From contig NZHE01000026.1 in assembly GCA_002691145.1 (NCBI GenBank), forward strand, positions 15,678 through 79,677: DNA of 64,000 nucleotides. The letters run 5' to 3'. A model generated the notes under the pieces. The model ran no database searches, was not told where the DNA came from, and worked only from the letters and a program-made list of their open reading frames with translations. A program made the position numbers and the translations under genes. This DNA is from Rickettsiales bacterium. GTDB taxonomy: Bacteria > Pseudomonadota > Alphaproteobacteria > Methylaequorales > Methylaequoraceae. Positions 46,887 to 48,164 of this stretch are shown here, piece after piece (the stretch's first letter is position 1; each line of letters opens with the position of its first letter).

Positions 46887-48164
46887 TTTTTCTTAACTAT
46901 CTCTTTTATTTCATGCATGTACTTTTGTAAAACTTTAGGCACAATTATATTCCCATTCTTTTGTTGGTAATTTTCAATAATTGCTACTATTATTCTTCCA
47001 ATGGCTAAACCTGAGCCATTAAGTGTATGAGGATATATTTTTTTTTTTTGAAATATTATCTTTATACCTCATTTTCATTCTTCTTGATTGAAAATCTTTA
47101 CAATTAGAACAACTTGATACTTCTCTGAATTTTCTTTGCCCAGGCATCCATACTTCAAAATCAAGAGTATATGAAGAGGAAAATCCAATATCAGCTGTGC
47201 ACAACTCCATTATTCTGTAATGAAGCTCTAATTCTTTTAAAATATTTTCTACACAATTAACCATTCTATCCAATTCTTTTTCAGAATTTTTTGGGCTTGT
47301 AATAGAAACAAGTTCAACTTTTCCAAACTGATGTTCTCTAATCAACCCCTTGGTATCAATTCCAGCAGATCCTGCTTCCAATCGAAAACAATTTGTATAT
47401 GTTGTGTACCTTAGCGGCAAAACATCTGGATTAAGTATCTCTTCCCTATGTAAATTAGATAAGCTTACCTCTGCTGTAGGGATAAGCCACAAATTTTTTG
47501 AAGTTTGGAATAAGTCCTCTTTAAATTTTGGTAGTTGACCTGTTCCAAAAAGTGTGTGTGACTTCACTAATTCAGGAACAATTACTTCCTTATAACCATA
47601 AGAAATAGTATGTTTGTCTAACATATAATTTACCAATGCCCTATGCATAGTTGCTAAGTCAGTTTTTAGAATAGAAAATCTTGAACCAGATAACTTAATC
47701 GCCCTCTCGTAATCTAGCAAATCAAGATTTTCTAAAATAGCCACATGATCCTTTGGTTCAAAATTAAATTCTTTTTTTTTTCCAAATTCTTTTATAATAT
47801 TGTTATCATGTTCTGATTTACCTAAAGGAGTTTTTTTATCAACAAGATTAGGTATGAGTTCCATAATTGAATTTATCTGAACTAATTTTTCATTCAAACT
47901 CTGATTAAGTTGGTTGCAATTTTTTTTAATATCTAGAACTTCATCTTTTAGATTTTTAGCCAGGATCACATCAGTCTTAGAAACTTGTCCAATCTTTCTT
48001 GAAATTTTATTTCTTTTTTCTTGTTCATTTTCAAGCTCTTTCAAGAGACTTAAGTACTGTTCATAAATTGAAATTATGACTTTACTTTGCGGCTCAATAT
48101 TTCTTTTTGATAAGAGTTTGTCAAATTCGTTTGGATTATCTTTTATGAATTTTATATCATGCAT
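46883..48164 (-). CDS. serS: seryl-tRNA synthetase, interrupted by a 1-nt frameshift in an A12 run (plus-strand T12 at ~47038-47049)
   Basis: Track ORF 47019-48164 ends prematurely after ...[16 protein letters not shown]. Reading A11 gives ...[55 protein letters not shown], the canonical SerRS C-terminus, for a total of 426 aa. Confidence 0.85.

Follow-up and report, generated by a model that had tools for sequence, protein, structure and literature searches.

We conclude that the A12 tract interrupting serS in the window (the whole stretch of DNA that was analysed, 64,000 nt in length) is very probably an A11 run overcalled by one base in the metagenome assembly, and that the serS gene is almost certainly intact in the organism. 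Because near-identical contigs carry A11 together with an intact serS, the break is no trait of the organism itself, and an assembly artefact is its most likely source. The observations are those expected of such an artefact: the tract has the in-frame length in near-identical genomes, the indels private to the window are confined to homopolymers and occur in excess, and conserved genes are broken without any other sign of decay. From these sequence comparisons we infer that the extra base was introduced by sequencing or assembly and is not of cellular origin. The serS of the organism would then be a normal, uninterrupted 426-aa gene, with a stop overlapping the start of pcm and with no recoding.

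The serS locus and its A12 tract

As the original prediction held, serS is split by a run of 12 A: a T12 lies on the plus strand at 47038-47049, and the 381-aa ORF stops 6 codons later. The elements of the locus are the following:

47038..47049, minus strand: A12 tract on the serS coding strand (plus-strand T12); the consensus of related contigs is A11
47019..48164, minus strand: 381-aa serS ORF of the window, ending in 6 out-of-frame codons after the tract
46883..47037, minus strand: serS 3' end, read in the other frame (residues ~376-426 plus stop), with motif 3
46236..46886, minus strand: pcm (protein-L-isoaspartate O-methyltransferase), whose start codon forms an ATGA overlap with the restored serS stop

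The break had been placed within the last 45 codons of the gene; it does lie near the serS C-terminus, but about 51 codons follow the tract rather than 45. When one A is taken away, the C-terminal 51 residues are restored, motif 3 included, in a frame that reads the tract as TCA AAA AAA AAA ATA (Ser-Lys-Lys-Lys-Ile) and ends in a TGA at 46885-46883. Both translation and tblastn agree with the earlier claim that the A11 frame reads on through the conserved SerRS C-terminal motif, that is, motif 3. The proposed overlap of the restored serS stop with the pcm ATG as ATGA is likewise present (TGA 46885-46883, ATG 46886), and the same 4-nt overlap of serS and pcm is found in intact relatives. When an intact relative was compared with the window by tblastn, its residues 1-375 aligned to 48164..47040 and residue 377 to the stop aligned to 47035..46883, in each case with 100% identity. 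Since both serS pieces are thus 100% identical in amino acid sequence to the intact relative, there is no decay 3' of the break.

The two readings of the tract give different domain contents. With A12, the 381-aa product matches in Pfam the coiled-coil Seryl_tRNA_N and profile positions 8-157 of the 179 of tRNA-synt_2b; with A11, the 426-aa product matches Seryl_tRNA_N at 1-108 and tRNA-synt_2b over profile positions 8-179 of 179. Profile positions 158-179, where motif 3 is located, are therefore absent from the A12 reading. The A11 reading is a bacterial-type class II SerRS, with an N-terminal coiled-coil domain for tRNA binding and a complete core that includes motif 3, and the Aquifex aeolicus SerRS structure 2dq3 can be aligned with the restored protein from end to end, with no gap across the junction (E 3e-119). 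In such a protein, the S-K-K-K-I segment encoded by the tract would belong to a variable loop on the surface, shortly before motif 3.

A long A tract is ordinary in the sequence of this window, not unusual: its GC content is 27.9%, and A/T runs of 8 nt or more number 133, 28 of them of 10 nt or more. Very long in-frame poly(A) runs are kept in essential genes of the consensus genome, their lengths being the same in most related contigs. These runs include:

53163-53176: argS, A14 (LKKKKI)
60933-60956: valS, A12 and A11 with one base between them (EKKKIKKKT)
50179-50189: scpA, A11
47772-47781: a second run in serS, A10
37320-37331: N-terminus of uvrA, A12

Judged from the sequence, the presence of such runs in a free-living bacterium implies that RNA polymerase slippage may produce appreciable transcript heterogeneity even from intact alleles.

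Near-identical contigs and the origin of the assembly

The contigs used for comparison came from the Tara, other ENA, JGI and Logan metagenomes and from one single-cell genome (GCA_902615335.1). A first set was obtained by exact-protein look-up with the neighbouring Pcm, and later look-ups covered the whole window and further serS copies; an exact look-up of the window protein encoded at 9324-9968 gave no match, and other proteins were used. Over 10.6 kb, the first six loci match the window at 99.7-99.9% identity, and each of them has A11 together with an intact serS of 426 aa. For the contigs of the whole-window comparison, identity is 99.83-99.96%. In the final tally, A11 and a 426-aa SerRS are present in 22 loci, representing 16 independent contigs that are 99.7-99.96% identical to the window; besides the window itself, A12 is seen in a single contig, the 5.5-kb scaffold L007 of a different metagenome, and thus in 2 of the 18 contigs. 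Substitution divergence between the window and the comparison contigs is about 0.03-0.17%.

The same picture is obtained at the protein level, where the exact intact SerRS occurs on at least 23 contigs of the collection and the truncated 381-aa form, looked up as an exact match, on just one contig besides that of the window. A contig from a different assembly (run ERR868407, the source of L069) covers the same genomic stretch and probably has serS intact. A pattern scan of the JGI contigs for the tract with 9-15 A had no match, and so gave no tract-length distribution, the scanned collection being evidently without L078 (JGI 3300020440, Ga0211518_10006548), the A11 sequence that was retrieved by protein look-up.

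The window is probably part of a Tara-Oceans-derived MAG of an uncultured, AT-rich marine alphaproteobacterium, and an exact protein match, together with the name that the source gives to that protein, suggests that it belongs to the Tully MAG set. At NCBI, the 381-aa product goes under the name 'MAG: serine--tRNA ligase [Rickettsiales bacterium]' (MAI85275.1, OUV52840.1) with no frameshift flag; the OUV accessions are presumably those of the Tara Mediterranean MAG project. In the pipeline described for the Tara Mediterranean MAGs, Megahit contigs were generated for each sample, collapsed with CD-HIT-EST and cross-assembled with Minimus2 at 95% identity, and the part of the methods that sets out these steps makes no mention of read-based polishing (PMC5507172).

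Homopolymer indels across the window

Seven indels distinguish the window from all or most of its relatives across the 64 kb, and each of them changes the length of an A/T run (8-13 nt) by a single base. One site is intergenic; the other six disrupt serS, the DUF815 gene, the MoxR-like AAA gene, ydjM and, at two sites, tatC:

14978..14987, minus strand: MoxR-like AAA ATPase gene, coding A10 (plus-strand T10), consensus A9; +1 relative to 9 of 9 loci; 223 instead of 278 aa
19391..19402, plus strand: ydjM-family gene, T12, consensus T13; -1 relative to 5 of 5 loci; 261 instead of 335 aa
24860..24869, no strand assigned: intergenic A10 between the rotamase gene and the ArsP gene, majority A11; -1 relative to 6 of 8 loci
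45260..45267, plus strand: DUF815 gene, A8, consensus A9; -1 relative to 6 of 6 loci; 223 instead of 256 aa
47038-47049, minus strand: serS, plus-strand T12; +1 relative to 11 of 12 loci in the whole-window comparison
48552..48562, minus strand: tatC, second overcall, coding T11 (plus-strand A11), consensus T10; +1 relative to 11 of 12 loci in the whole-window comparison
48818..48829, minus strand: tatC, first overcall, coding T12 (plus-strand A12), consensus T11; +1 relative to 10 of 12 loci in the whole-window comparison

In tatC, the site at 48818-48829 reads T11 in 16 loci and T12 only in the window and in one other contig (L004/L060), and the site at 48552-48562 reads T10 in 20 loci and T11 only in the window and in L005. 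As a result, the region 48167-48900 (minus strand) holds three ORFs of 95, 126 and 44 aa in the window versus one 243-aa TatC in most related contigs. Tracts of at least 8 nt that deviate from the majority length number 6 of 130 in the window versus 5 of ~780 in all the other contigs pooled; none of 106 deviates in the longest comparison contig, a Tara scaffold spanning most of the window, and none of 54 in the single-cell genome. These sites were located by comparing contigs, which was used instead of a scan that merges ORFs by adding or removing one base, as the scan gave false positives at gene junctions (5253, 46301/46310 and 48463) and missed the small gains at 45260 and 48818. The alternative offered by the original prediction, that the run length is mis-called, is thus upheld by the A11 of 16 independent near-identical contigs and by the excess of gene-breaking indels, restricted to homopolymers, in the assembly of the window.

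Other contigs and other kinds of indel were also observed. In L004/L060 (contig k119_778851), scpA is split into 128 and 117 aa by an A12 at window 50179-50189, where all the other contigs have A11; homopolymer miscalls are thus not unique to the assembly of the window, only more frequent there. Two differences lie outside homopolymers and look like real strain polymorphisms: a 3-nt in-frame difference at window 1441-1443 in the DUF1289 gene (65 versus 64 aa), common to L070 and L071, and a 4-nt difference at window ~54960, near the start of a dGTPase-like HD gene, common to L061 and L062.

The distribution of the extra bases does not follow that of the surrounding SNPs. Over the 5.5-kb region in common with L007, the window has the SNP haplotype of L001, L004 and L005, all of which are A11, and that of L007 is found again in L061 and L062, both of them A11 too. 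The window shares its serS tract state with L007 only, one of its tatC states with L004 only and the other with L005 only, and for each pair of serS and tatC tracts all four combinations of states are found. Because A12 occurs on two haplotypes whose nearest relatives are A11, and because all four combinations occur, the single-base events are recurrent and not inherited. Such recurrence fits error-prone calling at tracts of 10-12 nt; truly hypervariable tracts fit as well, less parsimoniously. Taken by themselves, the A12 call in a second assembly (L007) and the presence of each tatC overcall in one other assembly would also be expected of a tract that is truly hypervariable in the population.

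Alternative explanations and significance

We regard it as unlikely that A12 is a real allele, one to which replication slippage on A11 repeatedly gives rise and for which RNA polymerase slippage or ribosome sliding restores some in-frame product, even though the tract is long enough for slippage in both replication and transcription, A12 was called independently in two assemblies and on two haplotypes, and the downstream frame of serS is undamaged. Furthermore, poly(A) frameshifts in essential genes are thought to be rescued by slippage in Blochmannia and Buchnera (PMC3017870), where conservation of some of them extends across populations and even from one species to another (PMC3017870; review PMC5009743). 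If A12 were real in some cells, the frame would be restored by a 1-nt deletion in the mRNA, by a 2-nt insertion or by a +1 ribosomal shift. However, 16 independent contigs have A11 against 2 with A12; this one assembly would have to combine six frame-breaking tract mutations within 64 kb, tatC being hit twice, at only ~0.03-0.17% substitution divergence from intact genomes, a load which, scaled genome-wide, is implausible for a streamlined free-living cell; and a metagenome consensus does not normally report a deleterious minority allele. Rescue would moreover need a 1-nt deletion in the RNA, whereas the slippage of bacterial RNA polymerase on homopolymers mostly adds bases: in E. coli and Buchnera, the rates of transcript indels climb exponentially as A/T runs get longer, and the homopolymer events are mostly insertions (PMC5574713). 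We find quite improbable the stronger proposition that the A11/A12 and tatC differences are together a real, recurrent polymorphism in wild populations of this abundant free-living alphaproteobacterium, in which long poly(A) tracts of essential genes are hypermutable and slippage in transcription, or sliding of ribosomes, buffers the alleles that are frameshifted. The suggestion that roughly one third of transcripts or ribosomes slip at this site is both unneeded and unsupported, the frameshift being conserved neither in the population nor in related species and the downstream RNA having no significant structure.

Still more specific arrangements can be envisaged. That serS is a programmed recoding site, written in two frames with a fixed share of ribosomes shifting +1 or with RNA polymerase realigning on the A run, is barely credible: a slippery A run does lie exactly at the frame junction of an essential gene, but the frameshifted form is absent from 16 near-identical contigs, and a conserved two-frame arrangement was found neither in the population nor in related species. 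In the latter (uncultured marine Alphaproteobacteria, 'Rickettsiales bacterium' MAGs and SAGs, with SerRS 53-65% identical), the homologous loop is variable, with the pattern KD-x5-I-[YF]-[YF]-PHTLNGSG; a long A run is absent from it in all those examined, its length is that of the A11 reading and the frame runs straight through. A scan of genome contigs with the intact SerRS had its best match at 64-65% identity, the window's own species not being recovered. Stimulatory elements are missing as well: shuffled sequence folds just as well as the 88 nt 3' of the tract (z = -0.32), and inspection showed no Shine-Dalgarno-like element at a suitable distance (the nearest GAGG, ~17 nt upstream, corresponds to Met-Arg codons). 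A scan of the window with Rfam and for tRNAs revealed only three tRNAs, none of them relevant. We attach as little weight to a true pseudogene, or to a serS split into two polypeptides, in which a second copy or the assembled pieces would supply the function. Nothing beyond the frame break itself speaks for it, and, against it, neither piece differs from the intact gene by any substitution, and the locus is intact in near-identical genomes. A C-terminal subunit translated separately was considered and rejected, as the 3' piece has no in-frame ATG, GTG or TTG upstream of motif 3, and no ORF is listed for it. A second intact serS copy, which had been named as the refuting observation, was not found in the window by tblastn; it is the same locus, intact in near-identical genomes, that resolves the question instead.

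Endosymbiont poly(A) frameshifts rescued by transcriptional slippage were reportedly the subject of an experiment by Tamas et al. in 2008. The serS case resembles the frameshifts of Buchnera and Blochmannia in its AT-rich genome, its A tract of at least 11 nt, the one-base indel in an essential information-processing gene and the undamaged downstream frame (PMC3017870; PMC5009743), and in that a single indel falls within an A/T run of 9 nt or more in an otherwise intact gene. It differs from them in that some of the endosymbiont frameshifts are conserved, whereas the one described here is not fixed across populations or species: it is rare (2 of 18 contigs) and lies on two unrelated haplotypes. 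It is also accompanied by five other gene-breaking tract indels in one assembly, and the organism is free-living plankton and not a bottlenecked symbiont. With the +1 site of prfB, the -1 site of dnaX and the IS transposases (review PMC5009743), serS has in common a slippery homopolymer at the junction of two frames; unlike them, it has neither conservation nor a stimulatory Shine-Dalgarno element or downstream structure, and its truncated product, which lacks motif 3, has no plausible use. The serS break also resembles the homopolymer length errors of draft and metagenome assemblies, of the type that Kastor (PMC12007338) and the frameshift predictor GeneTack (PMC3711429) detect, in which one-base indels in long A/T runs split perfectly conserved genes, one assembly is affected and near-identical genomes are not, and several genes are hit within a short stretch. 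One difference is that Kastor, which is reference-based, deals with long-read assemblies, whereas the window is probably a short-read assembly made in two steps with Megahit and Minimus2, and its presumed error is deduced from contigs.

Were the frameshifts real, slippage-buffered alleles would extend from bottlenecked insect endosymbionts to streamlined ocean plankton, and this would be a first hint of them in free-living marine bacteria. Taken together, however, these results mean that the serS frame break is almost certainly not a real biological feature and that the organism has an ordinary intact serS. The finding carries little weight as biology, and its practical value is that of an annotation warning for this MAG: with serS, tatC, the DUF815 gene, the MoxR-like gene and ydjM broken on one contig, analyses of gene content and pseudogenes in this lineage would be distorted.
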